From Candidatus Omnitrophota bacterium (GTDB lineage Bacteria; Omnitrophota; Gorgyraeia; 2-01-FULL-45-10), in assembly GCA_030695905.1 (NCBI GenBank), contig JAUYOL010000001.1:2023-66022 (forward strand): a stretch of 64,000 nt of DNA, read 5' to 3'. Of this stretch, positions 6,103 to 54,800 are shown piece after piece (within the stretch, counting starts at the first letter, position 1; every line of letters starts with the position of its first letter). The notes beneath the pieces are model-generated. The model saw nothing but the letters and a program-made list of their open reading frames with translations. It did not search any database and was not told the origin of the DNA. The position numbers and the translations under genes were made by a program.

Positions 6103-6531
6103 CTATTTCTTATGTTTGCTGCATATCCCGAATATCTGAAGCTTGTGCCTCAACGGGGTAAAATGCTTTTCTTTCGCTAATTTTTCCTGCAACTCCTCTA
6201 TTTTCGGCTTTACCACTTCCGTATAGCTTCCGCATTTGACACAGATAAGATGATCGTGATGTTCATGTCCATATCGATGCTCAAACCTTGATATGCCGTC
6301 CCCAAAATCGACCTCATTGCAAAGGCCGGCTTCTTCCAGCAATTTCATCGTCCTATATACGGTAACATAGCCTATTTTGGGGGTTTTTTTCTTCACGATT
6401 TTGTATAATTCGTCCGTAGAGAGGTGCATCTCCACCGAGAGGAATACTTTCAGTATCTCTTCCCTCTGAGGCGTGTATCTTAGACCCTTCTCCCTGATAA
6501 ACTTTTCCAGTATCTCGATCTCTTTTTTCAT
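6103..6531 (-). CDS. fur: Fur-family metalloregulator
   Basis: DNA-binding wHTH N-terminus plus HEHHDHLICVKCG metal-site motif. Likely ATG start at 6531 (MKKEIEILEKF), whereas the track used GTG 6543. Confidence 0.8.
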   Translation of the reverse strand: MKKEIEILEKFIREKGLRYTPQREEILKVFLSVEMHLSTDELYKIVKKKTPKIGYVTVYRTMKLLEEAGLCNEVDFGDGISRFEHRYGHEHHDHLICVKCGSYTEVVKPKIEELQEKLAKEKHFTPLRHKLQIFGICSKHKK

Positions 6532-6559
6532 GTCATCTTCCACCTTTGTATGATTTTTT

Positions 6560-6578
6560 ATTGAAAAGTGATTTCAAT
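6560..6578. promoter_or_regulatory. Second copy of the ATTGAAAA-N5-TTTCAAT palindrome upstream of fur
   Basis: ATTGAAAAgtgaTTTCAAT seen about 30 nt upstream of the fur start; shares arms with the 6068..6086 site. Confidence 0.4.
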
Positions 6579-6620
6579 AATATCACGCTCATCGATTCCT
6601 GTCAAGAATTATTTTTAATT

Positions 6621-7579: not shown

Positions 7580-7759
7580 TTAAAATAAGGTTGAAACGAT
7601 GTAATTGCCGTCTTTCTTCAGTGCGGGCGAAACGCCAACAGCGGTCTTTAACGCAAAAGCCTCCATTGAAACCGATTCGGGTGAAGCATATTTTTTTGAC
7701 CCTGTACCCTTTTTGATATCCTGGTTCTTAGTCACTCCGGTTGATCTCATCTTGCTCAT
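7580..7759 (-). CDS. Candidate 59-aa precursor/partner peptide downstream of the PqqD-like gene (not in ORF track, below 60 aa)
   Basis: Hand translation MSKMRSTGVTKNQDIKKGTGSKKYASPESVSMEAFALKTAVGVSPALKEDGNYIVSTLF. Strong SD GGGAGGG 7 nt upstream of ATG 7759; starts 24 nt after the PqqD-like stop and ends 8 nt before the UbiA start. Confidence 0.3.
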   Translation of the reverse strand: MSKMRSTGVTKNQDIKKGTGSKKYASPESVSMEAFALKTAVGVSPALKKDGNYIVSTLF

Positions 7760-7782
7760 GCCGTTACCCTCCCTTTCTTTAT

Positions 7783-8097
7783 TTATTCTTCCAATATTCC
7801 TTTTTCAACAAACAAACGTGCACATTCACTAACTTCAGATAAAAGACTTGAGAAGTCTGTAGTCTCAAATTCACCTGCCACTTTTTCTGCGATTGCTTCA
7901 ATGTTATTGTTACCATCGCAAAGCTGGAAAATTTTCGCGGCTACCGGGTTTAATATCCTCGGTAGAGCAAAATCATCCTTATGGACTATTACAATCTGGT
8001 CATTTTCCCCATCCAGTCTCCAACGTAAATTTGTGGCTATCCTGGGTTTACTCATAATGGATATCTTCAGTGACATAGGGGATAGTCCTCTCCGCAA
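7783..8097 (-). CDS. PqqD-family peptide chaperone (RiPP recognition element-like)
   Basis: 104 aa; ..LNPVAAKIFQLCDGNNNIEAIAEKVAGEF...LFVEKGILEE matches the PqqD pattern; overlaps the rSAM gene by 50 nt. Confidence 0.7.
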   Translation of the reverse strand: MRRGLSPMSLKISIMSKPRIATNLRWRLDGENDQIVIVHKDDFALPRILNPVAAKIFQLCDGNNNIEAIAEKVAGEFETTDFSSLLSEVSECARLFVEKGILEE

Positions 8098-9079: not shown

Positions 9080-9167
9080 AAGTTAGCATTTTATCTTGTT
9101 AACCTTATTAAATCAAGGGGAATTCCACTATTTTAAATTGTGCCAGTGACTATTTATCGAGGGTTTT

Positions 9168-15070: not shown

Positions 15071-17290
15071 TTATCCGCTTCTTTTGTACCTTCTCATTAA
15101 CAAAGAGTTTCCTACTACCGAAACAGAACTAAATGCCATTGCCGCCCCAGCTATCATTGGATTCAGCAAAAATCCTGTAAAAGGATAGAGCAGCCCCGCG
15201 GCAATGGGTATTCCGACAATATTATAAAAAAACGCCCAAAAGAGGTTCTGCCTTATTTTACTCATGGTATATCCCGACAATTCAATAGCAGCGACCACAT
15301 CCCGCAGGTCATCCTTTATCAAAGTAATATCCCCGGATTCAAGGGCTACGTCCGTACCTGAACCTATAGCAATACCCAAATCCGCCTGCGTCAGGGCAGG
15401 GGCATCATTTAGTCCATCGCCAACGAACGCGACTTTTATCCCTTCGGATTGTAAGCGCACGATCTCCTTTAGTTTTTCTCCCGGCAGTACTTCGGTTAAA
15501 ACTTTATCTATGCCCAGCTCCTTCGCAATTACCTGCACTGTGCGCCTATTATCTCCCGACATTATAAGTATTTCTTTCCCCATTTTTTTAAGTCTAGAGA
15601 TTGTATCATGCGCAAAATTTTTTAAACTATCTCTGAACGCCAAGAGCCCAGTTAACTTTTCATCTTTTATTAAATACACTACGGTCTTGCCTTCATTTTC
15701 CAACCTTCTCACATCCTCTTCCGCCATGCGGACATCAATACTTTTCTTTTGCATGAGGCTGCGGTTTCCCACAATAATTTCGCTGCCATTTATACTGCCT
15801 ACTATGCCATTGCCCGGCAAAGACACGAATTTATCTACCGAATAAAGAGAAATTTTATTCGACTTCGCGGCGTTTATAACGGCTTCGGCTAAAGGATGTC
15901 CCGATTTGTTTTCTAAAGATACGCCGAGCCGTAAAACTTCCCGTTCGTCACAATTGTAAGTTTTTATATCCGTAAGCTGCGGCTTACCAATAGTCAGGGT
16001 CCCGGTCTTATCGAATATTACTACCTTAACCTGCCCGGCTATTTGTAAAGAGGCCGCGTTTTTGATAATAATCCCATTTTCCGCGGCCTTACCCGTGCCT
16101 ACCATAACAGCCGTTGGTGTTGCTAATCCCAATGAGCATGGGCAAGCAATGATTAGTACGGATATAAAAGCACTTAGCGCAAAAACAAAATCTTTTCCTA
16201 AAAAAATCCAGCCAAAAAACGAAAGGCAGGCAATTATCAATACTGTTGGAACAAAGATGGCGGCGATTTTGTCTGCCAACTGCTGAACAGGAGCCTTAGA
16301 CCCCTGCGCTTCTTCAACCAACTTTATTATCTGGGCCAGAGTTGTTTCGCGGCCCACCTTTGTCGCTTTAAATTTAAATGATCCGCTTTTATTTATTGTT
16401 CCCCCGATTACGGTATCGCCAATTGTCTTTTCAACCGGCATGCTTTCACCTGTGACCATAGACTCATCTACGCTTGAATAACCTTCGATGATCTTGCCAT
16501 CAACCGGAATTTTTTCTCCGGGCTTAACTATAATGATGTCACCTATAATTAATTCCTCAACGGGCATTTTTTCTTCCATGCCATTTCTTACAGTGGCGGC
16601 TATTTTTGGCTTAAGACCCATCAGTTTTTTGATCGCTTGTGATGTTTTCCTTTTGGAAATCGATTCGAGGTATTTTCCCAACAAGATAAAAGTGGGCAGA
16701 AAAGCGGCTACTTCATAATAAAGATTTTGCATGCCAAATGACTTATCCTGTGACCATATCATAATGCTTACAAATAGACTATACAGGTAAGCGCTCCCCA
16801 CCCCCAAAGCCACCAGGGTATCCATGCTGGCTCGATGTAGTTTAACTATGGTAGAAAATCCTCGACTGAAAAATTGATAGCTGCAGATTAAAACCCCTGT
16901 CGCCAAAATAAACTGCCATAATGCCATGGCCTCCATAACAAACTCAGGAACTGGTAAATCAACACAGGAACCCATCGAGATATACATCAGTGTGGAGGAG
17001 AGCGTTACCGCTATAATAAATTTTAATTTTAAGCGGTTTGTTTCTTTATCGGATTGTCTTTCCCTATTTAAAGAGGCATCTTCGGGCTCCGCGCTATAGC
17101 CTGTTTTTTTAATCGCTGTTATGATATCGAGTGTATTTATTGTTTCGGGATTATACTCTATATATGCCTTTTCTGAAGCAAAATTGACACGAGCGTTCTC
17201 GATGCCCTTAAATTTCTTTAAAGAGATCTCTATATTGGCTGCGCAGGAGACGCAATGCATCCCGAAAATATTTAAAATGATTTTTTTCAT
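15071..17290 (-). CDS. copA: Copper-translocating P1B-type ATPase
   Basis: HMA domain [15 protein letters not shown] motif [30 protein letters not shown]. Confidence 0.9.
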
Positions 17291-18348
17291 TATTTGATTC
17301 CCATTTGCAGAAGATATTTCTTTACACTTAGGGATGCCTTAGCCCCTTCTCCCGAAGCGATAATTATTCTTTTTCCAAAACAATTGGTAACATCGCCGCA
17401 AGCGAATATGCCTTCGACATTGGTGGAACAGTCGGGGTTTATTGCTATTTCTCCTTTTTCATTTAACTTAACCAGGTCCCTGCAAAATTCAGTGTTTGGA
17501 ATAAAGCCCATCTCGATGAATACGCCACTACAGGAGACCTGTTTTGTTGTCAACTTATCGGAAGATTGGATGACAACACCATCTATTCTATCTTCCCCTT
17601 TGATTTCAATAACAGTATTGTTCTCGATGATATTTACAGCACCGCCCCTTTTAAGCTCTTTAATATTATATGGGTTGGCGGTAAGCCTATCTTTTGATAT
17701 AAGCGATACTTTGCATCCCGCATTTTTAAGTTCGGTAGCTGCCCCAACAGCAAAATCTCCTCCCCCCACAACAACTACATCTGCTTCTTTAAATAACGCG
17801 GCGTCCTGGACATAATAATATGAAACTCCGCGCCTCACAAACTTCTCTTCACCTGGTACACCCAGTGTCTTTTGTTTTATCCCTGTAGCAATGATAAGCG
17901 CATAAGTAGTTATGCTGCTTTCGTCCTTGGTAAATACCTCAAAAATGTTTCCTTTCCGGATAATCTTAACAACTTCGTCTATCTTGTGCTCTAAGTAATG
18001 CTCATGTAAAAATTGACGCTCAAATTTCTCCACGAGCTCTTTCCCGCTAATAAAATCAAAACCCATGTAGTTTTTAATTTTTGCGCTGTTAATAGCCTGA
18101 CCGCCGATATTATTTGTTACCACGAAAGTGTCGATTTTTAAAGCAGACGCATAAACAGCTGCTGTCAATCCTGCCGGGCCTGCGCCGATAATAACCAGGT
18201 CGTAAACATATTTCGCCATGGCCTCCTCTGAAGACCCCTTAAATTTTTCCAAGCATCCCTTGGAACAAAAAAAGTATTTTTTGCCTCCAATCTCAAAAAC
18301 GAATTGTTCGCTTTCCACTCTCATGCCGCAAATAGGGTCTTTGATCAT
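17290..18348 (-). CDS. TRASH/YHS metal-binding domain fused to a thioredoxin-reductase-like FAD/NAD(P) flavoprotein lacking the CxxC redox centre
   Basis: N-terminal ICGMRV...YFFCSKGC. Two Rossmann GxGxxG motifs (IIGAGPAG; [12 protein letters not shown]). At the usual CATC position it reads [10 protein letters not shown]. Confidence 0.7.
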
Positions 18349-19448: not shown

Positions 19449-20075
19449 CTAAATTTTTCTTACCACGTATTCCAAAATACAGTCGGCCTGTTTGGCAGCA
19501 GCTACATTCACTCGCGGTGATAAGGCGGGCTTATGGCAGATATCGGACTTAAGATCCCCTATCATGACGAGATTATCTTTTATCCTATGGACCCTTATAT
19601 CGTCGCTTGAGCCGACACCGCCAAGACCTGAAACCGCTACGATAAACTTTTTCATCTGAAGTAGCTTTTCCAGAAGCATCCTCTTGTATTCGGCCGTATC
19701 AAGGCACTCCGCCACGATATCACATCCGCCGAATATCTCATCTATATTATTCTCGTCTATCTTTTTATTCACTGCTTTAAGTTTAAGGGCCGGATTTATC
19801 CTTAATAGGTTTTCTTTAAGCGCCTCTACTTTAATCCTGCCCACCTGATCCAGAAAATAGAACTGCCTGTCGAGATTCGTGGCATCCACCGTGTCGAAAT
19901 CCGCTATAGTGAGATTCGCAACGCCCGCCCTTACTAAATTCATGGCGCAATTCGACCCTAAGCCTCCCGCGCCCGCGATCCCAATTTTAGCGGCCTGGAC
20001 TTTTTTGAAACTCTCTTTGCCCAGCTTCTTAGCTATATCAGCGTGAAATATATCTATCGTCATATATGCATCCAA
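19449..20075 (-). CDS. thiF: ThiF-like E1 adenylyltransferase for ThiS
   Basis: [10 protein letters not shown] Rossmann motif; position in the thi operon. Confidence 0.75.
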
Positions 20076-21118
20076 TCTTTGAATACTGCCTGATACCCAT
20101 TCTTGTCGAGCATCGCCTTTATCTCTTCTACGCCTCTTGAGTCTGATATCTCAAATTGGGCTGTGCAGTCATCGGCTTCATATTTTATCGTATGGCCTCC
20201 GACGCGTGTAGTGGAGCCAGCGGACATCCTCGTAATGCCCAAGGGTATCAGGTTCTCGCGCAATTCCGGCCTTTCGCGCGTAGACAGCGCTATCCCCAGT
20301 CTCGGAAGAAAAATTCTTAGGGCCAGTATTATCTGGACTAAATTTTTATCACTTACTTCATGATCCGCTCTAAAACCGCTTACCTGAGGCCTTATTCTGG
20401 GAAGCGACACTCCTATCTCAACATCCGGAAATTTGTCCCGCAGATACTTCGCGTGAAGGCCAAGAATAAATATCTCTTTTCTCCAATCGGCAAGCCCCAG
20501 AAGAACACCTATATTTATATTTCTCATGCCGGCCTTTGCTCCGCGCTCCGGCGCGTCGAGACGAAAACGATAGTCACTCTTTGGCCCTTTTGGATGCATA
20601 TTATCATATATATTTTCGTCGTATACCTCCTGATATATAGTAAGCCCGTCGGCACCTTCGCAAATAAGCTGCGAATATTCTTCCTCGGTAAGAGAGTAGA
20701 CTTCTATCGATATGGATGAAAAATATTTTTTTAGCAGCCTGACGCAATCTCTGATATAACTTACCGGGCTCATCGATCTGGATTCGCCTGTAAGTATGAG
20801 AATATGCCTTAAACCCGTCGAAGAAATGGCGCGGGCCTCATCTTCTACCTCTTTGAGAGTAAGCGTTCTTCTCTCTATCTTGTTATTAACATTGAAGCCG
20901 CAATACAGGCAAAGATTATCGCAGTAATTTGAAAGATACATCGGCGTATATAGCCCGATGGTCTTGCCAAAATATCTTAATGTAAGGCCACGGGCATTTT
21001 GAGCCATCTCTTCCAAAGAGCCTTCTGCCGCAGGAGACAGCAGGGCAGTAAATTTTTGAATCTCGGATTCATAACTGCCGGAATTTTTATATCTTGAAAA
21101 TACTTCATAAAAACTCAT
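20060..21118 (-). CDS. thiH: 2-iminoacetate synthase (radical SAM)
   Basis: [10 protein letters not shown] CxxxCxxC motif; 352 aa; thi operon context. Confidence 0.8.
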
Positions 21119-21129
21119 ATCTTTTCCTG

Positions 21130-21921
21130 CTAACTCTCTCTTAAAAATCCGGTTAATGGGCTGGATGCGCTTGCATTAATAGATTGGGACGGGATACCAC
21201 CCAGATATCCGAGCCTTCCGGCCTTGACAGCTATGCTGAATGCTTTTGCCATAACGGCAGGATCTTGGGCTATAGCTATCGCCGTATTTACTAATACAGC
21301 CGCACAGCCTAATTCCATACAGTCGCATGCGTCGGAGGGCCTGCCAAGCCCCGCGTCTACAATAACCGGGATCTTTATCTCTCGCACTATGATCTCGATC
21401 AGCTCTCGTGTCTTAACACCTCTATTGCTTCCTATCGGAGAGCCCAGCGGCATTATGGCCGCCGCTCCTGCATCGACCATCCTTCTTGCTGCTGATAGAT
21501 CAGGGCTCATATATGGGAATACCTTAAATCCGTCTTTGGCCAGTATCTCGGTTGCCTTTAATGTCTCCATGTTATCCGGCAATAAATATTTATTGTCCTG
21601 GATAACTTCTATCTTGACCCAATCGCACGCGCCAGTTGCCCTGGCCAACCGCGCTATTCTTACGGCCTCATCGGCATTTCTCGCTCCGGACGTATTAGGC
21701 ATAACTATACAATTTTTTGGCACATAGTCCAGTATGTTTTCCGTCTTAGAGGCGCTATCAACCCTTCTTAAAGCAACGGTGGCCACTTCTATCTCTGATT
21801 CCTCCAGCGCCCGTTTCATTACAGAATAATTAGAAAATTTGCCTGTGCCGATAAAGAGCCTGTTTGATATCGATTTACCACCTATATTCAATATATCCTG
21901 CACTTTATCCTCCTCCAACAA
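21130..21921 (-). CDS. thiG: Thiazole synthase
   Basis: 263 aa TIM-barrel ThiG-like sequence (GTGKF, Schiff-base Lys region). Confidence 0.85.
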
Positions 21922-22105
21922 AGCTGACTATCTCGACATTGTCGTTTTCTTTCAACGCGATGCCCCGCCACTCGTCTTTTGAAATTATCTTAAGGTTGTA
22001 TTCTACCACTATATGTTCCGGCACGAGCCCTTTTGCCGATATGAGTTCCATCAAATTCACCGGTTTATCTATCGATTCACTTTTGCCGTTTATCTTTAGT
22101 ACCAT
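21905..22105 (-). CDS. thiS: Sulfur-carrier protein ThiS
   Basis: 66 aa ending in -GG; overlaps thiG and thiE. Confidence 0.75.
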
Positions 22106-22739
22106 TTTTGATTGCCCTCTTAAATTCTTTGGTTTTTTTAACTACATCATCTGCCTGGGTAATGCCTCTTATTAAAGCTATATTCTTCGCCCCCTTATTA
22201 AGGCAGCCGCCTATATTCGCGAGATCTATCCCGCCGATAAAGAATACCGGTTTTTTCGCTATATTTAATACTTTATCTACTCCATCGATACCTATGCAAT
22301 AATCCTTTGTTTCCGTTTCAAATAGAGGGCCAAACGCCACATAATCAAAATCTTTTTCGTTAGCTTCCCTGAACTGTTCTTCCGAATGAGTCGATATGCC
22401 TATTATTTTTTTGCGCCCCAGAAGACGGCGGGCCATTTCAAGAGAAAATAACTTAATGTCCTCCTGGCCCAGGTGGACCCCGTCGGCGCCTACCTCTTTC
22501 GCGAGCATAGGATCATCGTTGACTATGAATGTCACGTTGTTGTTTCTACAAAGACCCGACAACTTCTTGCCAAGCTCAACAAGTTCTTTGGCGGTCTTAT
22601 TCTTCTCTCTCATCTGGATAATATCAACTCCGCCTTTAATGGCGTGCTTTGCGATCTCAATGGCATTGCGGCCGCATCCATATTCTTCGCTTATCACCAG
22701 GTATAGACTATAATCTTTTATTTTTTTCATACTCCTCAA
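22077..22739 (-). CDS. thiE: Thiamine-phosphate synthase
   Basis: ThiE-like (..GGVDIIQMREK..). The track start is TTG 22739; ATG at 22730 (MKKIKDYSLY) is the likely start. Confidence 0.8.
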   Translation of the reverse strand: MRSMKKIKDYSLYLVISEEYGCGRNAIEIAKHAIKGGVDIIQMREKNKTAKELVELGKKLSGLCRNNNVTFIVNDDPMLAKEVGADGVHLGQEDIKLFSLEMARRLLGRKKIIGISTHSEEQFREANEKDFDYVAFGPLFETETKDYCIGIDGVDKVLNIAKKPVFFIGGIDLANIGGCLNKGAKNIALIRGITQADDVVKKTKEFKRAIKNGTKDKRQK

Positions 22740-22782
22740 TAAAATGACCCTTGTGCCGAAGCATAAGGGTCCTTAAAATCTA

Positions 22783-22873
22783 TTCCCCACGCTGGCATTA
22801 TCCAGATCGGGTCCATTGGGTAATCCGCTTAAATCTTGCGGAACTCTCAGACCGAAATCATCGGCCTCCCCTC
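22783..22873 (-). promoter_or_regulatory. TPP (THI-box) riboswitch with terminator-type expression platform upstream of thiE
   Basis: Minus-strand RNA contains CUGAGA and ACCCGAUCUGGAUAAUGCCAGCGUGGGGA, which match the TPP aptamer consensus. This is followed by the hairpin GACCCUU...AAGGGUC plus a U-run (about 22744-22775). Confidence 0.8.
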
Positions 22874-22925
22874 TTGTTCTGTATATTAAACCACCTGCCA
22901 AAATGTTTGTCAAACGAATACTTTA

Positions 22926-27461: not shown

Positions 27462-27714
27462 AAATATATAAGATATCCCGCCTAATTAAAAATCCCCGCG
27501 ATTGCCGTGTGAAATCGAATTATCTTGATCCTGTTATTTACAGGTGGGTGCCCTCCAGATAAGCGCTAAAAGCTCCTACCCGAGTTAGGCTCCCAATATT
27601 AATGCTATTGGCTCAAGATTCTTCGCTCAAAGCACGCGCACCGCAGGGAATTTTTTACTTCCAAGACAAGTATAGCACATAAAATAGTGTAAATCAAATT
27701 GCGGTAAGCCTTGG

Positions 27715-39788: not shown

Positions 39789-41372
39789 TTATGTCTTTTT
39801 CAATATTACAGACTGCTCAACTATTGTCAGCACAGTATTCACCACCCAGTAAAGCACCATACCGGAGGGCATGTTATAAAATATGAACCCAAACATTATC
39901 GGCATTATGACAAGCATTATCTTTTGCTGCTGTCTTTGCTCTTCGGTAACGGCTCCGCCCATAACTTTAGACGATATCTTCTGCTGAACAACCATAAGCG
40001 CTACCATCATCAGTGGTAATACGTTTATGCTGTTGCCGAATATCGGCAAGGAGAATGGTATGCCCACGGCGTCCGGCATAGAAAGATCGCTTATCCATAA
40101 AAAGCTGGCGCCCCTTAAATCTATCGATTTTGTAAGCGCCTGGTATAACGCGACAAATATCGGCATTTGAAGTAAAAGAGGCAGGCAACCACTTAATGGA
40201 TTTATCTTATATTTTTTGTACAGCTCTAATACTTCTTTATTGAGTTTTTGCGGATTATCTTTGTTCTGCGCCTTGAGCTTTTCCATTTGTGGATGCAGTT
40301 CGTGCATCTTCTGCATAGACTGGAAACTTTTTAATGTGAGAGGGAAGAGCACTATATTTAAGAATATCGATATAAGTATTATCGACAGCCCCCAGTTGTG
40401 AACGAGCTTATAGAAGAAAGCTGTGATCACCAGCAACAGCTTTGCTATGCCACCAAAAAATCCATAATTTATCGACTCTTCAAATTCTAAGCCTAACTTC
40501 TTGAGTTCCGCACCGATACTTGGACCCGCATATAAAACGAATTTATTCTCCACTGAAGAATTTGCGGGGATCAAAAGCTTTTCCATTTCGATTCCGGAAT
40601 ATATCTTATCTCCTGCGGCATATCCGTGATACTGACTTTTTGTTTGCCCATACGGCTTCATTATGAGCGAGAAATATCTTGTTTTTGCCGCAACCCAACT
40701 AACTATCCCTGGATTTACAATAACATTTTTGTTGGGTCTTTTGAAACCAACCGTCTTACCATCAACTTTTGAGATTACCTCAATTAGATTCTTGTCCTCG
40801 GTCCTTGGTTCAACCAGGCCCGATCCGGATATAATTTTGTATCCGAGTTCGGCAGGAGACGATGAGTAGTTTTTCACTAAGAGTTGTAACTCTATTACAT
40901 TGCTTGAGTTGCGTAAAGTATATATTTTTACTATCTCCAAATTCTTTATCGCCAGGGTGTAAATAATCTTGTTGTCATCGCTATCAAGTTTATATGCCAT
41001 TTGATTCAATGGCAAAGCGCCAAGCGTGTCATTAATGGAAAAAAGATAGTTCGAGGGGGTTTTTTCTTCAACCAGCGGCATCGGGTCGTTAGATTTCAGT
41101 TTTTTATAGTTCCTTAACTCTATTTTCTTGATAGCGCCGCCGATATTGCTGAATGTAACTATATATCTGTCGGTAGATGCCAAAAACTCCTTTTCGTCAG
41201 CGGGAGGGGTTGGCGTAAGATACTGTATATTTTCAACCTCTTTTTCTTTTACCACCGCGGCTTCCTGCGTCTTACCGGGCATGGGCGCTTGTTTTGGCGA
41301 CGGAAACAGGTATTGGAACCCCACTATTATAAGCACTGAGAAGGCTATAGCTAAAATCAGTTTTTTTTCCAT
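39789..41372 (-). CDS. yidC: Membrane protein insertase YidC
   Basis: 527 aa; N-terminal TM, large periplasmic domain, 5-TM C-terminal core. Confidence 0.85.
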   Translation of the reverse strand: MEKKLILAIAFSVLIIVGFQYLFPSPKQAPMPGKTQEAAVVKEKEVENIQYLTPTPPADEKEFLASTDRYIVTFSNIGGAIKKIELRNYKKLKSNDPMPLVEEKTPSNYLFSINDTLGALPLNQMAYKLDSDDNKIIYTLAIKNLEIVKIYTLRNSSNVIELQLLVKNYSSSPAELGYKIISGSGLVEPRTEDKNLIEVISKVDGKTVGFKRPNKNVIVNPGIVSWVAAKTRYFSLIMKPYGQTKSQYHGYAAGDKIYSGIEMEKLLIPANSSVENKFVLYAGPSIGAELKKLGLEFEESINYGFFGGIAKLLLVITAFFYKLVHNWGLSIILISIFLNIVLFPLTLKSFQSMQKMHELHPQMEKLKAQNKDNPQKLNKEVLELYKKYKINPLSGCLPLLLQMPIFVALYQALTKSIDLRGASFLWISDLSMPDAVGIPFSLPIFGNSINVLPLMMVALMVVQQKISSKVMGGAVTEEQRQQQKIMLVIMPIMFGFIFYNMPSGMVLYWVVNTVLTIVEQSVILKKT

Positions 41373-41390
41373 GATATTCCTTTATATTGT

Positions 41391-41600
41391 TTACTTTACA
41401 GGGTCATATCCGCCGCGTGAGAACGGGTTGCAGCGTAAAACTCTCCAAATGCTTCTTACGCCGCCGGAGATTACCCCGTGTTTTTGAACAGCCTCTATGG
41501 CATATTCTGAACAGGACGGATAAAATCTGCAGCAACGTATGTTTATTATTGACAAATACTTACGATAAAACTTCAAGGCCGATATTACTATATACTTCAT
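41391..41600 (-). CDS. yidD: Membrane protein insertion efficiency factor YidD
   Basis: 69 aa; LKFYRKYLS...[11 protein letters not shown]. Confidence 0.8.
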
Positions 41601-41983
41601 ACTAATATCCTTGCTTTTCTGGCCAGGTTTAAAAAAATGTTTTCGGCATCCTTATAAGAAAATTTTACCGCGGGATCTTTTCTCACAACGAGTGTCATGT
41701 CAAATCCGTTTTTGAGTTTCCCCTTGGTCAGTCGAAAAACCTCACGGAACAATCTGCGCACACGGTTGCGCCTAAAAGCTTTCTTGATGCTCCTGGAACT
41801 TATCGAAAACCCTATACGGTTTAGGCTTAAGGTGTTGGGCAGGACTTTTAGAACAAACGGCCCGCTGGATAATGAGCTTCCGGATTTATAGATCTTCCTG
41901 AATTCGCCCGTTTTTATCAGGCGCTCTTTTTTTGGGAAAGTCCGAGGACCAGATAATGCAGTTTTCTCGTCGGAGCCCATCAT
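41597..41983 (-). CDS. rnpA: RNase P protein component
   Basis: 128 aa, basic; rpmH-rnpA-yidD-yidC synteny. Confidence 0.8.
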
Positions 41984-42117
41984 ACGGTGAGCTTATATCT
42001 GCCCTTCTGTCTTCGTCTTTTTAAAACAGCTCTGCCATGGCGCGTGCGCATTTTCTTCCTGAATCCGTGCGTTCTCTTTCTCTTAATATTAGAGCCGGCT
42101 TTTAAAGTATACTTCAT
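41980..42117 (-). CDS. rpmH: 50S ribosomal protein L34 (not in ORF track)
   Basis: Hand translation [45 protein letters not shown]; stop TGA overlaps the rnpA ATG (ATGA). Confidence 0.75.
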
Positions 42118-42325
42118 TGGTTTGGTCCTTTCGTAAATTTATTGGAAGATTGATTATACCACAACGTCTTGCCGAGTCAATCTTTTTGTTTTTGCTTGCA
42201 ATTACAATTTTTTTCCTCTATAATGGGTGCGATTCTGGAAGGTTTTTGTTAACAACCTGTGTATAACCTATGTGCTACATATGGAAAAACGGCGTATTCA
42301 CTGTGGATAATTTTTGGCAGGATAA
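42118..42325. other. oriC / dnaA promoter region with DnaA boxes
   Basis: TGTGGATAA (42302-42310) and TGTGTATAA (42258-42266) are reverse complements of TTATCCACA-type boxes. Promoter TTGCAA-N17-TATAAT at 42195-42223; AT-rich; divergent rpmH and dnaA. Confidence 0.6.
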
Positions 42326-43699
42326 ATGACAAGCAACGACTCTTCAATCTGGCTCAGGGCCAGAGAATTTATAAAGAAAGATCTCGATAACGACCAGGTA
42401 TTTAATATTTGGTTCGGCCCTATCAGGCTTGTGTCTTCGACAGAAAGCTCCATAACGCTGGAGGTCCAGAACAAGTTATTCCAGGAGATGCTTCTCGACC
42501 GCTATCTGAAGATCATAAATTCCAGCGTCGCTAAATCGTGCGGCAAGGAGATGCGCGTTGAATTCGTATTAACGGAGTCTTCCGACGCGCCCAAACAGGC
42601 GCAGCCTCAGGATATACCAAAAACTCCCGGCAAACCATTCTGGCCTTTTGCGCGCGAAAAACAGGATACCGGCAAAGAGATAGGCTTAAACCCGAGATAT
42701 ACATTCGATAGCTTTGTCGTCGGGCCAAGCAACCGGTTCGCGCATGCCGCGACAAACGCCGTATGCGATTCCCCCGCAAAAGCATATAATCCTTTGTTCA
42801 TCTACGGCGGCGTCGGTTTGGGTAAGACCCATCTAATGCACGCTATCGGCCACAAGGCTTTACAAAGGGCTCCGAAGACAAAAATATTATACATATCCAG
42901 CGAGGACTTTACAAACCAACTCATAGCTTCTATACAAAACAGGACCACCATGAAGTTCCGGGAAAAATACCGCAATGTCGATATCCTTCTCATAGATGAT
43001 ATACATTTTATCGCCGGCAAGGAGTCGACACAGGAAGAATTTTTCCATACATTCAATACTCTTTACGACGCGCATAAGCAGATAGTCGTTTCCAGCGACA
43101 GGCCGCCAAAAGAGATACAGTCTCTCGAGGAAAGGCTTGTCTCCAGGTTTGAGTGGGGGCTTGTCACCGACATCCAGCCGCCTGATTTTGAAACGCGAAT
43201 GGCCATATTGAAGAAAAAGTCCGAGCGCGACGGAATAGTTTTGCCCGACGATGTATACTACTTCCTGGCGGAGAAAGTAAAGTCTAACATCCGCGAGCTT
43301 GAAGGTGCGCTCATACGCGTTGTGGCATACGCGAAGCTTATAGGCAGAGAGATAACCGTGGATATGGTTAAAGAGGTTTTAAAAGACATGATCCGTGAAG
43401 GTGAAAAAAATATAACGATCGATTTAATACAGAAAAAGGTGTGTGAGTATTTTGATATCAAGCTATCTGATATGAAGGTAAAAAAGCGTTCGCGGGGCAT
43501 AGCATACCCAAGACAGATAGCAATGTATTTAGCCCGTCAGCTCACGGATTACTCTCTACCTGAAATAGGCGAATACTTTGGCGGCAGGGACCATACCACG
43601 GTAATGCATGCCTTTGATAAGATACAAAATGATCTAAAGATTAAGAAGGGTTTGAGTAGTTTGATTGAAAGGGTTACCGAAAACATACAGTCGTCTTAG
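42326..43699 (+). CDS. dnaA: Chromosomal replication initiator DnaA
   Basis: GGVGLGKTHLMHAIG Walker A; AAA+ domain III and C-terminal DNA-binding domain IV. Confidence 0.95.
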   Translation: MTSNDSSIWLRAREFIKKDLDNDQVFNIWFGPIRLVSSTESSITLEVQNKLFQEMLLDRYLKIINSSVAKSCGKEMRVEFVLTESSDAPKQAQPQDIPKTPGKPFWPFAREKQDTGKEIGLNPRYTFDSFVVGPSNRFAHAATNAVCDSPAKAYNPLFIYGGVGLGKTHLMHAIGHKALQRAPKTKILYISSEDFTNQLIASIQNRTTMKFREKYRNVDILLIDDIHFIAGKESTQEEFFHTFNTLYDAHKQIVVSSDRPPKEIQSLEERLVSRFEWGLVTDIQPPDFETRMAILKKKSERDGIVLPDDVYYFLAEKVKSNIRELEGALIRVVAYAKLIGREITVDMVKEVLKDMIREGEKNITIDLIQKKVCEYFDIKLSDMKVKKRSRGIAYPRQIAMYLARQLTDYSLPEIGEYFGGRDHTTVMHAFDKIQNDLKIKKGLSSLIERVTENIQSS

Positions 43700-43856
43700 G
43701 TTTTATTGTGGATAAGCCTGTGGGCTTTGTGGTTAAGTTAATTTTACACAACATCTTGGGGCAAAATAGGTTGGTAACTTATACACACTATCAACACCAC
43801 TACTAATGCTACTACTATTTTCTTATCTATAGAATAATAACAGAAGAGGTGAGTGA
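43700..43856. promoter_or_regulatory. dnaA-dnaN intergenic DnaA-box cluster
   Basis: TGTGGATAA at 43707-43715; TTATACACA at 43779-43787 and an adjacent TATCAACAC; AT-rich. Confidence 0.5.
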
Positions 43857-44948
43857 ATGAAGTTTGACACGACAAAGGATGTTCTAACAAAAGGAATACA
43901 AGACGTCCAAAGCGCCATAAACCCAAAAACAACATTACCGATACTATCGAACATATTAATGGAAACCGGCAAAGATAATCTATCACTCACAGCAACAGAC
44001 CTTGATATAGGCATAATATCAAACATACAAGTTAAACCAGGGACAGAGGGGGCTATAACCATCCCGGCAAAGAAATTTTTCGATATTATAAAAGAATTAC
44101 CCGAAGGGGATGTGTCTGTATCGGTAAAAAAGAACAATTTAGTGCACATAGAATGCCCAAGCTGTTTATTTAAGATAATGGGCCTGCCAAAAGATGAATT
44201 TCCTCAATTACCGGATTTTAAAGACAAGGACTCAATAGCGATACAACGGCCGAGACTGAAAAAGATGATCGCGATGACAAGTTTCGCGATAAGCCGCGAT
44301 GAAACAAGGTATGTGTTAAACGGTGTATTGTTTATAATAAAGCCAACATATATAAGGATGGTGGCAACTGATGGGCGCCGACTCGCAATGGTGGAAGAAA
44401 AGATACAGGCGCCAAAGACGCAGGAAAGAAAGGTTATAATACCGGCCAAGACTATAGCGGAGCTTGGGAAGTTGTTGGGAGATGAAGGCGAGGTTAAGGT
44501 TTGTTTTGGGAATAATCAGGTGCTGTTTGATATGGGCGGGACAAAAGTTGTGTCGCGGCTTATTGAGGGAGAATTCCCAAACTACGAACAGGTAGTGCCC
44601 AAAGAGGTTAAGGACAAGATTGGTGTGTCGCGGGTAAAGCTTCTTGCGGCGACAAAAAGAGCCGCGTTGTTTACAAATACCGACTCTCTCGCAGTCAAGA
44701 TAGAATTATCCAAAGACAAGATGGTTCTTTCAAAGAGCGCACCGTATATAGGCGAAGCGCGCGAAGAGATCGTGGTTGATTACAAGGGCAAAGACATTGC
44801 GATAGGGTTCAACCCTGATTATCTTGTAGACGCGTTAAAAAACATAAATGAAGAAACTGTAAACCTTGAAATTTCCGACCCTGAAAAGCCGGGGGTGATA
44901 AGAATAGGCAATGAATATGTTTATGTAGTACTGCCGATGCAGTTATAA
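43857..44948 (+). CDS. dnaN: DNA polymerase III beta sliding clamp
   Basis: 363 aa three-domain clamp; follows dnaA. Confidence 0.9.
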   Translation: MKFDTTKDVLTKGIQDVQSAINPKTTLPILSNILMETGKDNLSLTATDLDIGIISNIQVKPGTEGAITIPAKKFFDIIKELPEGDVSVSVKKNNLVHIECPSCLFKIMGLPKDEFPQLPDFKDKDSIAIQRPRLKKMIAMTSFAISRDETRYVLNGVLFIIKPTYIRMVATDGRRLAMVEEKIQAPKTQERKVIIPAKTIAELGKLLGDEGEVKVCFGNNQVLFDMGGTKVVSRLIEGEFPNYEQVVPKEVKDKIGVSRVKLLAATKRAALFTNTDSLAVKIELSKDKMVLSKSAPYIGEAREEIVVDYKGKDIAIGFNPDYLVDALKNINEETVNLEISDPEKPGVIRIGNEYVYVVLPMQL

Positions 44949-44952
44949 TTTT

Positions 44953-49076
<4,124 letters not shown>

Positions 49077-49085
49077 AGGAGAGAC

Positions 49086-51686
49086 ATGTACGCGAGAAAT
49101 GAAAAATTAGTTCCGGTATACATAGAAGAGGAGATGAAAGACTCCTATATAAATTATGCTATGAGCGTTATCGTTGGCCGCGCTCTTCCGGATGTGCGCG
49201 ACGGGTTGAAGCCCGTTCATCGTCGTATATTATTTGCGATGAAAGAACTCGGCGTAGAGCATTCCAAGCCCTACAAGAAATGCGCCCGTATAGTCGGAGA
49301 GGTTTTGGGAAAGTTCCACCCTCATGGAGATGTCGCCGTGTATGATACTCTTGTGAGAATGGCGCAGGATTTTTCTTTAAGGTATCCTTTAATAGAGGGC
49401 CAGGGGAACTTCGGATCTGTCGACGGAGATTCGCCGGCCGCTATGAGGTATACCGAAGCCAGGCTTAGCCGCATAACAGATTACATGCTTCTCGATATAG
49501 AAAAGAACACAGTCGACTTTATGCCGAACTTTGACGGATCGCTCGAAGAGCCGATGGTTCTGCCGGCATGCCTTCCGAATTTGTTAGTAAATGGTTCAAG
49601 TGGTATAGCGGTTGGCATGGCTACAAACATCCCGCCGCATAACCTGACAGAAGTCGCGCAGGCCGTGATGTTTGTTATAGACGATCCAAGCTGTGACCCT
49701 AAAGATCTTTTAAAGATAGTCAAAGGTCCGGACTTCCCCACGGGCGGTATTATAAGAGGTTATGAAGGTATTAAGAATGCGTACTCAACGGGCAGGGGGC
49801 TGTTAAGGGTTCACGCAAAAGCATTCATAGAAGAACAGAAGAATGGGAAAGAAACAATTATAGTAAAAGAACTGCCATATCAGGTCAACAAGGCCAATCT
49901 TATCGAAACGATAGCGGACCTTATCACAGATAAGAAGATCGACGGTATAACGGACTTGAGAGACGAGTCGGATAAAGACGGCATGCGCATCGTCATAGAG
50001 ATAAGGCGCGGCGCTAACGCAAAAGTTATACTAAACCAGCTCTACAAACACACCCAGATGCAGACGACATTCGGCGTGATAATGCTGGCGCTGGTTGAGG
50101 GCCGGCCCAGGGTTCTTAACTTAAAAGAGGTTTTGGAAGAATTCATCCGCCACAGAAAAGAGATCGTTATCCGTCGGACGAAATACGATCTTGAGAAAGC
50201 GCAGGATCGCGCCCACATTCTGGAAGGATTAAAGATTGCCTTAAAGGAACTGGACAAGGTCATAAAGATAATACGCGGCTCAAAAGACCCGCAGGAAGCG
50301 AAGGCCGAGTTAATAAAAAAGATAGGGCTGTCCGACAGGCAGGCGCAAGCTATTCTTGAAATGCAGTTACAGCGCCTTACGCATCTGGAGCGCGACAAAA
50401 TTGACAAAGAATACCTGGAGCTGATAAAGAAGATAGAATTATTCAAATCTATCTTAGAGAGCGAAAAAAAGGTCCTCGAGATAATCAAGCAGGAGATGAA
50501 AGATCTGATAGAAAAGTTCGGAGACGCGCGCAGGACGGATATATTGCCGGAGACCGAAGAACTTGATATAGAGGACCTCATAGCCGAAGAGGACGTTGTC
50601 ATAACGATAAGTCACGCCGGCTATATTAAGAGGCTGCCGGTTTCAGGATACAGGAAGCAGCGGCGCGGCGGTAAAGGTGTTACGGGCGCAGACATGAAAG
50701 AAGAGGACTTTATAGAGCACCTCTTCATAGCTTCTACCCACGACTACATGCTATTTTTTACCGACAAAGGCATAGTGCATTGGCTTAAGGTGCATGAAAT
50801 ACCCGAAGCCGGGCGCACTTCCAAAGGAAGACCCATAGTGAATTTGCTTACCCTTGGCGCCGGAGAGAAGGTAAGCGCCTTTGTCCCGGTAAGACAATTC
50901 AAAGAGGGCGAATTCCTGGTGATGGCCACCAAAAACGGCACGATAAAAAAGACGGCCCTTACGGCATATTCGAATCCGAGAAAAGGCGGCATTATTGGCA
51001 TAACTCTTGAGAAGGACGATGAGCTTATCGAAGTCCAGCGCACCGACGGGAACGCCGAACTGCTTATGGCCACGCGCGAAGGCAAGGCGATACGCTTTAA
51101 AGAATCACAAGTCCGGGATATGGGCCGCGGCGCAAAAGGTGTGCGCGGGATAAATCTCGGCAAGAAAGACGCGCTGATAGCGATGGAAGTGGCGAAGGCC
51201 GACCAGACGATTCTTACAGTCACGCAGGAAGGCTTCGGTAAGCGCACACTATTTAAAGAATATCGCATACAATCGCGCGGCGGCAAGGGTATAATCAATA
51301 TAAAAGTCACCGGCAAGAACGGCGAAGCCGTCGGAATAAAGACAGTTTCCGATAGAGATGAAATTATGCTTATTACAGAAAAGGGCATGATAGTCCGTTC
51401 GCCGATCAAGGATATTAGGGCGACAGGCCGTTCAACGCAGGGCGTGAGGCTCATGAAACTTGACAAGGGTGATAAAATATCCTCTGTGGCAAAGATAGTC
51501 CCCGAGGATGAGGCAGCGGAAGAAGAGAAGATAAAAGAAGCGGGGGCCAGCGCTGGGAAGGAAACTCCCGCTCCCAAGAAAGAAGAAGCGGCTGTAAAAG
51601 AAGAAGCAAAGAAAGAAGTTATAAAAAAAGAGGAAGTAGAGCAGAAAAAATCGCCTAAGAAAAAAGCTATAAGGCGCAAAAAATAA
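49086..51686 (+). CDS. gyrA: DNA gyrase subunit A
   Basis: [10 protein letters not shown] active-site Tyr region; beta-pinwheel C-terminal domain; KE-rich acidic/basic tail. Confidence 0.95.
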
Positions 51687-51874: not shown

Positions 51875-54800
51875 ATGTTTCTATACAATATTAGATATAG
51901 CGTATTATTTAAGGCTATGGCCCTGGCGTTGGTGTGCCTATTTGTAGCTAGTGATCTCATTTACGCTACCCCAGAACTCCGCACTGCTTCTCAATCCACT
52001 CTCGCCGCACTTACACAACTTAACAAGCCTGAATTTAGAGAAGCAGCTGCCATCAGAGAATGTCTGCTTGCATCCAAAGGAGCGGATAAGTATATAAATG
52101 AGCAAATCCCCAAAGAAAAAGGCATCTTTGGCAAAGAATGGGAATCTCAGCGAACCGAACGCGTAAACATATATGATACAGAGCTAAAAGGTCGAATAAA
52201 CGGTAAGCCAATAGCAGGACTGGATTCCGTGCTTTTTATCAAGCTCGCAGGGTTTTTGGCTTCCACAGGCCAGCCATTTCAGGCTGATCTTGCCGGCAAA
52301 GGTTATGACGGTCTTCCAGTAGTGTATATCGACAGCGCATTGTGCAATACACCTGACAAATGTATTCAAAAGCACGAGATAGACCAAATCCTGCAATGGG
52401 AAGACCTAAGAGTAAATATGCTACATATCGCCGATAAGAAAGCGATGAGAAGATGGGTCAGAAGATATATCAACGATGCCGACCAGGCGCTTCAAGGTAC
52501 CCCTTACGAAGGAATGAACTCACGCCAGATCGCAAAACTCTTCCACGGATATTCCTATCCTTTAAGAGATCCCTATAAAAAATTATTCCGTGAAACTGAC
52601 TATGACTACGAATATATAAGGACGATGCTCTCCATTTATGGTACCGACGAAGAATCGGGCGAGCTTAAACTAGTCGCGCGGCGCGAAGAAACCCCCGCGC
52701 CCCACGTTAGGCCAGCGGCCGCGGGAACTGGAGTAGCACAAAATATGCTATCCCCGGAGTTTACCTGGCTTATCATGACTTCCCAGGTCACTACTGACAT
52801 AGAATCGATTTCTACTTATTTGAAGCCGATACAGGACACGATAGAAAGTTTAGACAGCTCCGGCGCAAGATTTTCACCTTATACCAGAAAGGTTTTAGGT
52901 GATGCGCGCAAACAAGGAGCTTACCTTTGCGAACAATTAAAAGTTATGATCCAGAAAACAAAAGGATTGTCCTCTGGGCCCATAAACAGACAAGCAGCAG
53001 CTTCCCTGCTTAATAAAATCGACAATGGTGGGAGGTTTGACGAGGTATTGGGTATCTTTTACCACGATGTATGGGATATCATAAGAGAAACACCTCCCAC
53101 AGAGCAAGCAGAATCATTAAAAGATGCATTTGAAAAGCTCCATAGCCGGCATGACCGTATCCGTTCGCAATTACTCGCCCTTGCACATCCGCAGATATTT
53201 ACAGGTAAAACGGGCGCGCTTTGCTACCCTCCCTGGCTTATAAAAATTCCTGAAGCACCGAGAAGTCATATCGAAATTAATCTTTGGGAGCTTCTAAGCG
53301 GGCGCCGTGCCATCTCATATGATTCTTGGCCGTCAAAGCATGAAAGACGAGAACACATTCTCCCAATCGAAAATGAACACAGGTTTTTTGAAAGACGCTT
53401 TGCGAAACTCCCTGAATTAATCACAAGCGGCGCATGGATGGGAATTAACAGAGACTTTAAGACTTTTGCCATAGAGCTTATCTATCTTTACGGGCTTTCT
53501 CTGGATTATTTTCGAATTCAGAAGCAAGTCTTGGAAAAGGCCGCGATAGATCCAGACCAGGTAAAGGACGTTCTCGACCTGGGAACAAATTCATGGCCTT
53601 ATGCTTGGTGCTTTGAAGAAATCTTTCCCAATCTTGAAAAGGCGTATGGCATTGAGGGTAGATGGAAACATTCCAAGGAATTCCAGAATTTTTGGGCGCC
53701 CTTATCCGGCTTGGATCCGACTAAATATAAAATCATCAACGGAGACTTTCTGGAGATAGAAGAGATACCCGAACTCTGGCCGTCAAGCGAGACGGGAGGC
53801 TCTTTCGATCTTATTTTTGCGCATGGTTTTAAGCCGGACTTTAAGGTATCGAATGGCGCTAATGAAGACGCGTATTATTACAAATTATTGCTCTCCGCAA
53901 GCAGGTTGCTTAGGCCCGCGGGGCACATTGTTTTTATTATCAAAAAAGATGAATTGGATAAATTCCGTAAGATGCTCGCGCTTTTAGAGGGTCGGAGCTG
54001 GGCCGACAGGGTGATGAACATGGCGGGCTTTGCGCAAATAATTTATGAAGATGTCGATGTTTTTGTTATTTCTCAAGAAGACCTTGTCAGACATGAGAAG
54101 ATTTTGGAGCAAGGAGTTCAAGCCCGCGAGGCCAGACACGAATATGCCGAAGCAGCCGCATTTTATGAAAGGCAAAGCGATCTCGAGGCCGATACGGCCA
54201 AGCCCTATGTTTTAGCGGGAGATGAGTGGCTGAAGGGGGCCGAGTCATTCATAAAGACAGCAAAAAAATGGCGTCGGAAGCCCTCCAACGATGATGAGTG
54301 GATCAGCTGGATGCTTGAAAACGCTATCGATCGATATAGCCGCTATTTTAAAGCGCCAAAACAACGGAAAGATGATATGTATGTCCGTCAACAACTCGAT
54401 AGGATCTATGAAATAATAATAACAATGCGTCAGGGGTTTTTTGATGACGAAGAAAGCCGATTGTTTGTTTCGAAATTCCCAAAAAAGCCCGCTACCGATT
54501 CACAGCGGGATCAGCTGATAAATTATTTTTTCCTTAAAGACTCCGGTGGAGATCCTTTAGAAAGCGCTCCGGGCAGCCTGCCATTAAATGTGCCACAGAA
54601 TACCGATGCGGACCGTTTAATAGGCGAGGCCCTGGCAGAAATCGAAGCCGGGCAGCGTTTGTTGGTGCAAAAAAAGGCAGAGGCGAAAGCACAAGGAAAT
54701 GCGAGTATTTTGTGGAACCATATACGGGAAAGCAGCATCCCCGATTATGAGCTGCGCCTTCGACTGCTATATCATATGGGGATTTTAAGGGGCAATCTTT

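Follow-up and report, generated by a model that had tools for sequence, protein, structure and literature searches.

A conserved 59-codon gene in a radical-SAM, PqqD-like and MenA-like prenyltransferase cassette of Omnitrophota probably encodes a cofactor-type precursor peptide

The stretch of DNA analyzed here (in the following, the window) comprises 64,000 nucleotides (nt) of contig JAUYOL010000001.1 from a Candidatus Omnitrophota bacterium (assembly GCA_030695905.1). On its minus strand, a short open reading frame (ORF) of 59 codons lies between the genes for a radical S-adenosylmethionine (rSAM) enzyme and a PqqD-like protein on one side, and the gene for a MenA-like membrane prenyltransferase of the UbiA superfamily on the other (Table 1). 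The original prediction, made from the letters of the window, had described the ORF as an unannotated precursor peptide with a PqqA-like Glu-x3-Tyr motif, and had overlooked the prenyltransferase as the fourth conserved gene. We consider it probable, with substantial reservation, that the ORF is an efficiently translated precursor-peptide gene of a cofactor-type pathway resembling those of ribosomally synthesized and post-translationally modified peptides (RiPPs), that it belongs to a four-gene operon, and that its product is linked to the prenyltransferase.

Table 1. Features of the cassette and its putative expression signals in the window (aa, amino acids; RRE, RiPP recognition element).
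Feature	Position	Strand	Remarks
MenA/UBIAD1-like membrane polyprenyltransferase, 316 aa	6621..7571	(-)	PF01040, TIGR00751
Precursor-peptide gene, 59 codons	7580..7759	(-)	ATG at 7759, TAA at 7582-7580; putative substrate peptide
Shine-Dalgarno sequence GGGAGGG	7767..7773	(-)	7 nt 5' of the peptide ATG; best ribosome-binding site of the operon
PqqD-family protein, 97 aa	7783..8076	(-)	putative RRE peptide-recognition partner; overlaps the 3' end of the rSAM gene
Radical-SAM enzyme, 343 aa	8048..9079	(-)	CxxxCxxC at C41/C45/C48; PF04055 match
Weak sigma-70-like promoter match TTGATT-17-TAAAAT	9088..9116	(-)	directly 5' of the rSAM gene; possible operon promoter

Both the minus-strand ORF and the GGGAGGG heptamer in front of its ATG had been read correctly from the sequence. 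The ORF translates into a basic peptide, MSKMRSTGVTKNQDIKKGTGSKKYASPESVSMEAFALKTAVGVSPALKKDGNYIVSTLF, which contains no Cys, as predicted. The default six-frame list does lack it, but for no other reason than its length below 60 aa. Nor is the ORF unannotated: GenBank lists it as the hypothetical protein MDP3790434.1 (Q8R38_00055, Candidatus Omnitrophota bacterium, 142.8-kb contig), and a Logan assembly contains the call as well. Scans of the peptide against Pfam and NCBIfam returned no family at E ≤ 0.01, and an Rfam scan found no RNA family at its locus. By themselves, the ORF and the heptamer carry no statistical significance: 79 ORFs in the first 16 kb of the window are 40 aa or longer, and five copies of GGGAGGG in the whole window stand against an expectation of 5.9, so that only the position and conservation of the heptamer count. 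The promoter match upstream of the rSAM gene agrees with the consensus at 9/12 positions, and matches of this quality are no more numerous in the region than in shuffle controls. A near-consensus promoter (TTGACA-17-TATTAT with extended TG; 6577..6605, minus strand) precedes the Fur-family gene at 6103..6543, which forms a separate transcription unit 3' of the cassette.

What exceeds chance is conservation, both as purifying selection in the peptide frame and as a GGAGG-type site that is equally spaced in all orthologous loci. Such a site was found 5–9 nt before the ATG in 17/17 distinct orthologous peptide genes. Over the last 36 codons of six divergent orthologues, the ratio of nonsynonymous to synonymous substitution rates (dN/dS) was 0.04–0.11, with synonymous sites saturated or nearly so, and variable first, second, and third codon positions numbered 7/7/31. 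The alternative that the ORF is no gene at all, either because it arose by chance or because the plus-strand ORF 7605..7832 is the real gene, could draw on the commonness of ORFs of this size and on the unremarkable count of the heptamer. However, the third-position variation fits the peptide frame, and length, stop, and ribosome-binding site are kept in 17 distinct loci. The plus-strand ORF, which the original prediction had named as the possible real gene, is not conserved, and we dropped it; the longest antisense open stretch varies from 38 to 85 codons across loci, the frame being broken in several. We therefore give this alternative next to no credence, and the minus-strand ORF is evidently a genuine, strongly conserved gene.

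The peptide family is very small, and its members come mostly from Omnitrophota. A word-indexed search recovered 12 further homologue clusters with 60–88% identity, and a hidden Markov model scan of 1.84 billion representative proteins yielded only 7 representative clusters at E ≤ 1e-10; scanning GTDB species genomes gave 3 loci, and scanning JGI metagenomes gave 13. Besides the genome holding MDP3790434.1, cassette-bearing assemblies include GCA_041643075.1, GCA_040960175.1, GCA_023247945.1, and the ERZ21828306 bin. Each locus carries one copy, encoding a peptide of 56–62 aa. In an alignment of 18 sequences, residues 1–23 vary and have a basic composition rich in Lys, Arg, and Ser (net charge of this N-terminal part between 0 and +8, in most sequences +4 to +8), while residues 24–59 are nearly invariant. 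This C-terminal half includes a TAxGxSPA stretch, and the near-invariant positions are Y24, P27, M32, F35, T39, A40, G42, S44, P45, A46, K48, Y53, S56, L58, and the C-terminal F59; no Cys is conserved in the family alignment. The last 36 residues are 56–94% identical across rSAM clades that share only 53–61% identity. Modeled alone by AlphaFold2 with the family alignment, the peptide reached a predicted local distance difference test (pLDDT) score of 53 and formed only a short helix at residues 32–40. It is thus predicted to be disordered and to have no autonomous fold, which is compatible with a precursor, although as evidence this is weak.

The PqqA-like motif did not survive translation. 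Codons 47–53 read CTG AAG AAA GAC GGC AAT TAC, i.e., L-K-K-D-G-N-Y, and the tail of the peptide reads ...ALKKDGNYIVSTLF. In the hand translation of the original prediction, a single residue was wrong, as codon 49 (AAA) had been read as Glu; since residue 49 is Lys, the claimed E-D-G-N-Y does not exist, and the window encodes K-D-G-N-Y. Lys occupies the position four residues before Tyr53 in 16/16 locus peptides, the wider alignment shows K, N, or G at this site, a Glu was found there in 0/16 orthologous locus peptides, and acidic residues at Y-3 or Y-2 occur in some homologues without being conserved. The conservation check that had been proposed hence gave a split result: the C-terminal region is kept across orthologous loci, but ExxxY is absent. 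We discarded the E-x3-Y motif, as it stems from a mistranslated codon and is missing across the family. That the peptide nonetheless behaves like PqqA, with a PqqE/PqqD pair crosslinking a Glu to a Tyr four residues further on, is highly improbable. Tyr53 is invariant, and the adjoining genes do encode a PqqD-domain protein and an rSAM enzyme with weak PqqE similarity; however, the latter reaches only 99.8 bits on the PqqE model TIGR02109 (cut-off 381; coverage of the core only) and lacks a SPASM domain, and neither pqqB and pqqC, sought in the window and related loci, nor pqqF was found in any locus. Judged from its sequence, the peptide is not PqqA and would use no Glu-Tyr crosslink.

The 97-aa protein matched the PqqD family PF05402 with 28.7 bits (gathering score 23.4), but reached only 26 bits on the PqqD equivalog model TIGR03859 (cut-off 46), and thus reads as a PqqD-family protein of the RRE type and not as a PqqD orthologue. 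Its gene is kept in every cassette locus. PqqD/RRE domains are the peptide-binding modules of RiPP pathways. The original description of the neighbors as PqqE-like and PqqD-like holds insofar as an rSAM enzyme and a PqqD-domain protein adjoin the ORF, but the rSAM enzyme is not PqqE.

For the rSAM enzyme, all NCBIfam matches (AhbD, TIGR04053, NirJ, ScmE, MftC, WgkB, PqqE, and others) were far below their cut-offs and confined to the core; the best were AhbD, NirJ, and TIGR04053, and the longest alignment was to the MftC model TIGR03962 (residues 23–302; 111.9 bits, cut-off 265). It belongs to a family of about 48 clusters with at least 53% identity, all of about 342 aa, below which a 31%-identical sister family follows. 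The Pfam scan did not detect PF13186 (SPASM) in the enzyme itself, and the domain was found in 0/48 close homologues, whereas more distant matches do have it. Only the Cys residues C41, C45, and C48 are invariant. Among 25 aligned members, Cys271 occurs in 25, Cys193 in 23, Cys279 in 18, and Cys342 in 11; in the clade of the window only C193 and C271 remain outside CxxxCxxC, and the enzyme of one locus (L012), read directly, has Gly at position 271. An AlphaFold2 model (pLDDT 87.6) predicts a C-terminal domain that is SPASM/Twitch-like in fold and lacks the full set of cluster-binding Cys, i.e., the Cys-rich auxiliary-cluster motif is absent despite the SkfB-like fold. The nearest solved structures are the peptide maturases SkfB, PqqE, and SuiB, followed by viperin and MoaA; SkfB was matched with E-values of 6e-42 by sequence and 3e-18 by fold, at a template modeling (TM) score of 0.70 over 309 columns (PDB 6efn).

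In the sister family, which also lacks SPASM, the rSAM gene is again paired with a PqqD partner in a low-GC organism (L014 1314..2970 and L015 819..2462), where a convergent small ORF of 70–73 aa containing Cys lies beside a large LuxR/NB-ARC/TPR regulator. Y-x-S-P was considered as a recognition motif common to this small ORF and the window peptide, and was rejected as the hhalign comparison was not significant (P 0.076).

Across about 20 distinct loci, the peptide gene always follows directly after the rSAM and PqqD-like genes in the same orientation, and the conserved order on one strand is rSAM, PqqD-like protein, peptide, MenA-like prenyltransferase. A conserved, co-oriented short ORF under purifying selection beside a CxxxCxxC rSAM gene and a PqqD-like element corresponds to the generic outline of an RRE-dependent rSAM RiPP system. 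That the peptide is the substrate of the adjoining rSAM/PqqD-like pair, as originally proposed, is thus well supported by selection, fixed synteny, and predicted disorder, apart from the supposed PqqA-like crosslink site.

The prenyltransferase gene starts 8 nt past the stop codon of the peptide gene, lacks a separate ribosome-binding site in the window, and lies 3' of the peptide gene in 15/17 distinct loci with enough downstream sequence. Its product is named 1,4-dihydroxy-2-naphthoate (DHNA) octaprenyltransferase in GenBank and scores 121 bits on the menA model TIGR00751 (cut-off 102), while all NF0047xx equivalogs remain below cut-off. UBIAD1 (8djk) is the closest PDB sequence, and MenA was matched far better (E-value 7e-46) than chlorophyll synthases (7e-8) or haem O synthase (1e-3). 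Both Asp-rich motifs are kept (NDYFD...D and NEIPDxEAD...GK). Within the superfamily, the cassette enzymes form a clade of 51 terminals, 47 of which are search-hit clusters of at least 50% identity, a size similar to that of the rSAM family with its 48 clusters. The clade leaves out the canonical MenAs, a 46%-identical archaeal MenA of L032, and a second MenA of L027, and was seen only together with the cassette in 8/8 contexts read. Its members share a conserved N-terminal extension of about 24 residues, and two positions that are highly conserved in relatives are replaced, R25 (99%) by G and N69 (97%) by S.

These data bear on the possibility that only rSAM, PqqD-like protein, and peptide form a modification unit, and that the UbiA-type enzyme is simply the ordinary MenA of the organism, co-located and not acting on the peptide product. 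The score above the menA cut-off, the GenBank name, and the retained Asp-rich motifs agree with it, as do the long-chain-type polyprenyl-diphosphate synthases and quinol-using cytochromes close by in several loci and the lack of an adjacent UbiA gene in two loci (L016 and L028). However, the clade is restricted to the cassette and excludes canonical MenA, its members in L030 and L033 score only 91 and 87 bits on the menA model and thus below cut-off, and the replaced R25 and N69 as well as the 8-nt spacing speak for a dedicated enzyme. L027 (471..2368) even carries, directly 5' of a cassette with its own UbiA gene, a polyprenyl-diphosphate synthase gene and an additional MenA of more canonical type (194 bits, DHNA prenyltransferase model). 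Furthermore, no men or mqn gene was found in the 64-kb window or in the locus flanks. We regard the ordinary-MenA explanation as unlikely, though it is the likeliest of the alternatives.

The wider neighborhoods of the cassette vary, but several associations recur. A polyprenyl-diphosphate synthase gene adjoins it in three arrangements, upstream (L012, L013, L030, and L034), downstream (L017), or together with the extra MenA (L027); the scores of the neighboring synthase on the heptaprenyl (219 bits), short-chain IdsA (213 bits), and solanesyl (207 bits) models are all below cut-off and do not resolve its chain length. Immediately 3' of the UbiA gene, L013, L024, L030/L031, and L034 carry a gene for an AhbD-like rSAM/SPASM protein (454–466 bits, cut-off 500). 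Directly 5' of polyprenyl synthase and cassette, L013 (2484..3572), L030 (1..4253), and L034 (1..5265) carry a hybrid RnfC-D-G-E-A and NqrF-like operon, which comprises RnfC, RnfD, an FMN_bind protein (RnfG/NqrC-like), two Rnf/Nqr membrane subunits, and then an NqrF-type 2Fe-2S/FAD/NAD reductase (TIGR01941, 305 bits, cut-off 295). In L033 (1..16966), ahbA and ahbB, which score above their cut-offs, flank an inserted cassette in a complete-looking operon for siroheme-dependent haem synthesis with the order cobA/hemD, ahbC-like, hemB, ahbD-like, ahbA, cassette, ahbB, hemL, NrfH-type and multihaem cytochromes, and resB/ccsA, the last being cytochrome c maturation genes. Anaerobic cobalamin genes lie directly 5' of the cassette in L006. 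A divergent peptide clade with the tail ...SSRTALGVSPAMKKKENYVVSVLF was found in L028 (156..8787) and L016 (1..9194), whose surroundings contain two BchE/HpnJ-like B12-radical-SAM genes, another rSAM gene, and two carbamoyltransferase genes; in L016, a further rSAM gene follows the peptide gene. The link between the cassette and haem, quinone, and Rnf genes is a correlation. The copper and iron genes near the cassette in the window (Cus, Fur, FTR1, and P19) were considered as parts of the system and dropped, as the cassette sits in unrelated contexts elsewhere.

The tetrapyrrole context invites another explanation, in which the peptide is a small structural or regulatory partner, e.g., by belonging to the prenyltransferase or to tetrapyrrole enzymes as a subunit or by acting as their chaperone, and the rSAM enzyme acts on a small molecule resembling a haem or siroheme intermediate. 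The location within the ahb operon (L033), beside AhbD-like genes (L013, L024, L030, and L034), and beside cobalamin genes (L006) would suit it, as would AhbD, NirJ, and TIGR04053 as top family matches of the rSAM enzyme; haem O and chlorophyll synthases belong to the UbiA superfamily, and very high conservation over 36 residues would also suit a protein–protein interface. However, the rSAM–AhbD resemblance is confined to the shared core, the cassette UbiA is far nearer to MenA than to haem O or chlorophyll synthases, the peptide is predicted to be unstructured, and PqqD/RRE domains are known for binding peptides in RiPP pathways. Taken together, we hold a partner role of the peptide to be quite improbable.

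A secreted antimicrobial or signaling RiPP of the bacteriocin kind is also conceivable, given that rSAM enzyme, RRE, and short peptide are its typical architecture and that the nearest solved structure, SkfB, is a bacteriocin maturase. Against it, the core of the peptide is nearly invariant and not hypervariable, there is one copy per locus, and no recurrent leader protease, ABC exporter, or immunity gene was found in any of the approximately 20 cassette loci, the neighbors of which are housekeeping or respiratory genes. A bacteriocin-like product is accordingly very unlikely, and the invariant core, the single copy, the lack of export genes, and the respiratory-cofactor neighbors argue for a product of the cofactor type rather than a toxin.

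Returning to the cofactor-type precursor that we favor, the pathway may proceed as follows. The peptide is made from the strongest ribosome-binding site of the operon; the later steps are inferred. The PqqD-like protein, by the established role of PqqD/RRE domains, would bind the segment Y24-x2-P27-x3-S-M32-x2-F35 and present the peptide to the rSAM enzyme, which would cleave SAM at its single [4Fe-4S] cluster and abstract a hydrogen atom from the tail K48...Y53-I/V-x-S56-x-L58-F59-COOH. The sequence does not reveal the type of reaction. Because a complete auxiliary cluster is lacking and Cys271 occurs throughout the 25 aligned members (Gly in L012, read directly), redox-neutral or Cys-assisted chemistry, e.g., epimerization, C–C cleavage, or rearrangement at Tyr53 or Phe59, seems about as plausible as an oxidative crosslink. 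Finally, given the conserved synteny and the dedicated clade, the cassette MenA-type polyprenyltransferase could have the modified peptide, or an aromatic part of it, as its acceptor or partner. This would yield a membrane-anchored product that serves the respiratory or cofactor machinery, to which polyprenyl-diphosphate synthase, the Ahb haem genes, the Rnf/NqrF-type complex, and the cytochromes c belong; alternatively, the product may cooperate with a prenylated membrane molecule. The prenylation step is the least secure part of this scheme, and a prenylated product is suggested by how tightly a dedicated MenA-type enzyme is coupled to the peptide and how often a polyprenyl-diphosphate synthase is present.

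Several observations weigh against this scheme. The divergent loci L016 and L028 contain rSAM, PqqD-like, and peptide genes with no adjacent UbiA gene, so that the prenyltransferase is not obligatory, and the window UbiA, with its score above the NCBIfam menA cut-off, may simply be the MenA of the organism. The acceptors of the UbiA superfamily known to us are small aromatics or tetrapyrroles, not peptides. The rSAM enzyme lacks the SPASM auxiliary clusters that most known peptide-crosslinking maturases use, and the variable part of the peptide is N-terminal, which is unusual for a leader.

A more specific and decidedly speculative version holds that the peptide is the precursor of a polyprenylated, membrane-anchored redox cofactor, i.e., a peptide-derived quinone, for the Rnf/NqrF-type complex and quinol-dependent cytochromes. 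Here, the rSAM/PqqD pair would form an aromatic head group or a reactive handle from the invariant Tyr53...Phe59 tail, and the MenA-type enzyme would then add a long polyprenyl chain, in Omnitrophota hosts that would have no complete classical pathway for quinone head groups. In a published survey, many Omnitrophota have a prenyltransferase but an incomplete version of the usual quinone head-group pathway (PMC10066038), which fits the idea of a peptide-derived head group and does not test it. We think it unlikely that this version applies in full.

Regarding other features of the window, its minus strand carries a 6S RNA (27489..27652, 74.7 bits), a thiamine pyrophosphate riboswitch (22767..22882, 56.4 bits) 5' of a thiE-thiG-thiH-like-thiF block (19449..22739), and, directly after a copper P-type ATPase and CusCBA, a fusion protein that joins a YHS metal-binding domain at its N-terminus to a pyridine-nucleotide-disulfide oxidoreductase (17290..18348). 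The region 39789..51686 is the chromosome origin region, with YidC on the minus strand followed by DnaA, DnaN, GyrB, and GyrA on the plus strand, and a likely oriC at about 41.4–42.3 kb, where gene orientation switches. GyrB (45255..49076, plus strand, 1273 aa) contains an intein (PF14890 Intein_splicing, residues 457–880) inserted before the Toprim domain, and a giant ORF of 1866 aa (51875..57475, plus strand) follows GyrA and a tRNA.

To our knowledge, few ribosomal peptides serve as raw material for cofactors, namely those of pyrroloquinoline quinone (PQQ), mycofactocin, and pearlin-type scaffolds, and we know of no cultured member of the phylum Omnitrophota. The discoveries of the PQQ, mycofactocin, and pearlin-type systems each opened new enzymology. 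A search of full-text literature outside subscription-only papers found no description of an rSAM–PqqD–UbiA cassette. The layout of the cassette resembles that of PQQ biosynthesis (PqqA/PqqD/PqqE): the peptide is short, encoded once, and conserved in its core, the PqqD domain forms a protein of its own, and the rSAM enzymes fall into one broad clade. The cassette peptide, with an invariant Tyr, could likewise be the ribosomal raw material of a cofactor. Unlike PqqA with about 23 aa, however, the cassette peptide has 56–62 aa and no E-x3-Y; the rSAM enzyme has neither SPASM nor auxiliary-cluster Cys and scores far under the PqqE cut-off; and PqqB, PqqC, and PqqF are absent, with a MenA-type prenyltransferase instead. 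The mycofactocin system (MftA/B/C) shares with it a conserved C-terminal core, an aromatic residue at the free C-terminus, a PqqD-like RRE partner, and redox-enzyme neighbors as a RiPP of the cofactor type, and the MftC model gave the longest alignment to the cassette rSAM. On the other hand, the tail ...Y-I-V-S-T-L-F differs from ...C-G-V-Y, the MftC score (112 against 265 bits) and the missing SPASM set the enzymes apart, and the accessory genes MftD, MftE, and MftF were not seen in the cassette loci, which have a membrane prenyltransferase.

SkfB, the Twitch-type maturase of the sporulation killing factor, resembles the cassette enzyme as a peptide-modifying rSAM protein with a reduced C-terminal auxiliary domain; however, SkfB binds an auxiliary cluster and forms a Cys-to-Met alpha-carbon thioether, whereas the cassette peptide has no conserved Cys and the enzyme of the window clade keeps only two C-terminal Cys. 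MenA and UBIAD1, the DHNA or menadiol polyprenyltransferases, are the top family and PDB matches of the cassette UbiA and share both Asp-rich motifs. The cassette UbiA differs from them as a separate, cassette-only clade with an N-terminal extension and replaced R25/N69, in having no DHNA pathway genes nearby, and in coexisting with a canonical MenA in L027. If the product were a prenylated peptide, it would resemble those of peptide prenylation by the cyanobactin F-type ABBA enzymes and ComQ/ComX in carrying an isoprenoid on an aromatic side chain, but those enzymes are soluble, either ABBA or polyprenyl-synthase-like, and use C5–C15 donors, while the cassette enzyme is an integral-membrane member of the UbiA superfamily.

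As the membership tests failed (E-x3-Y, SPASM, equivalog scores, and accessory genes), the cassette falls outside the PqqA/D/E and MftA/B/C systems, and we classify it, on comparative grounds, as an RRE-dependent radical-SAM peptide system of the putative cofactor type with a new partner enzyme. It bears the genomic signature of cofactor RiPPs, i.e., a single-copy peptide with an invariant core, rSAM and PqqD-like proteins, no export or immunity genes, and redox or cofactor neighbors, but departs from the known ones by the loss of SPASM clusters and by a dedicated MenA-type clade, often accompanied by polyprenyl-diphosphate synthase and alternative-haem genes. Even a conservative reading would add an uncharacterized family of peptides and maturases, no Pfam or NCBIfam model having matched the peptide. 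If the link to the prenyltransferase is functional, RiPP chemistry would be joined to the biosynthesis of isoprenoid quinones or respiratory cofactors in Omnitrophota, and if the peptide is indeed turned into a quinone, this would be the first enzyme of the UbiA superfamily in a RiPP pathway.

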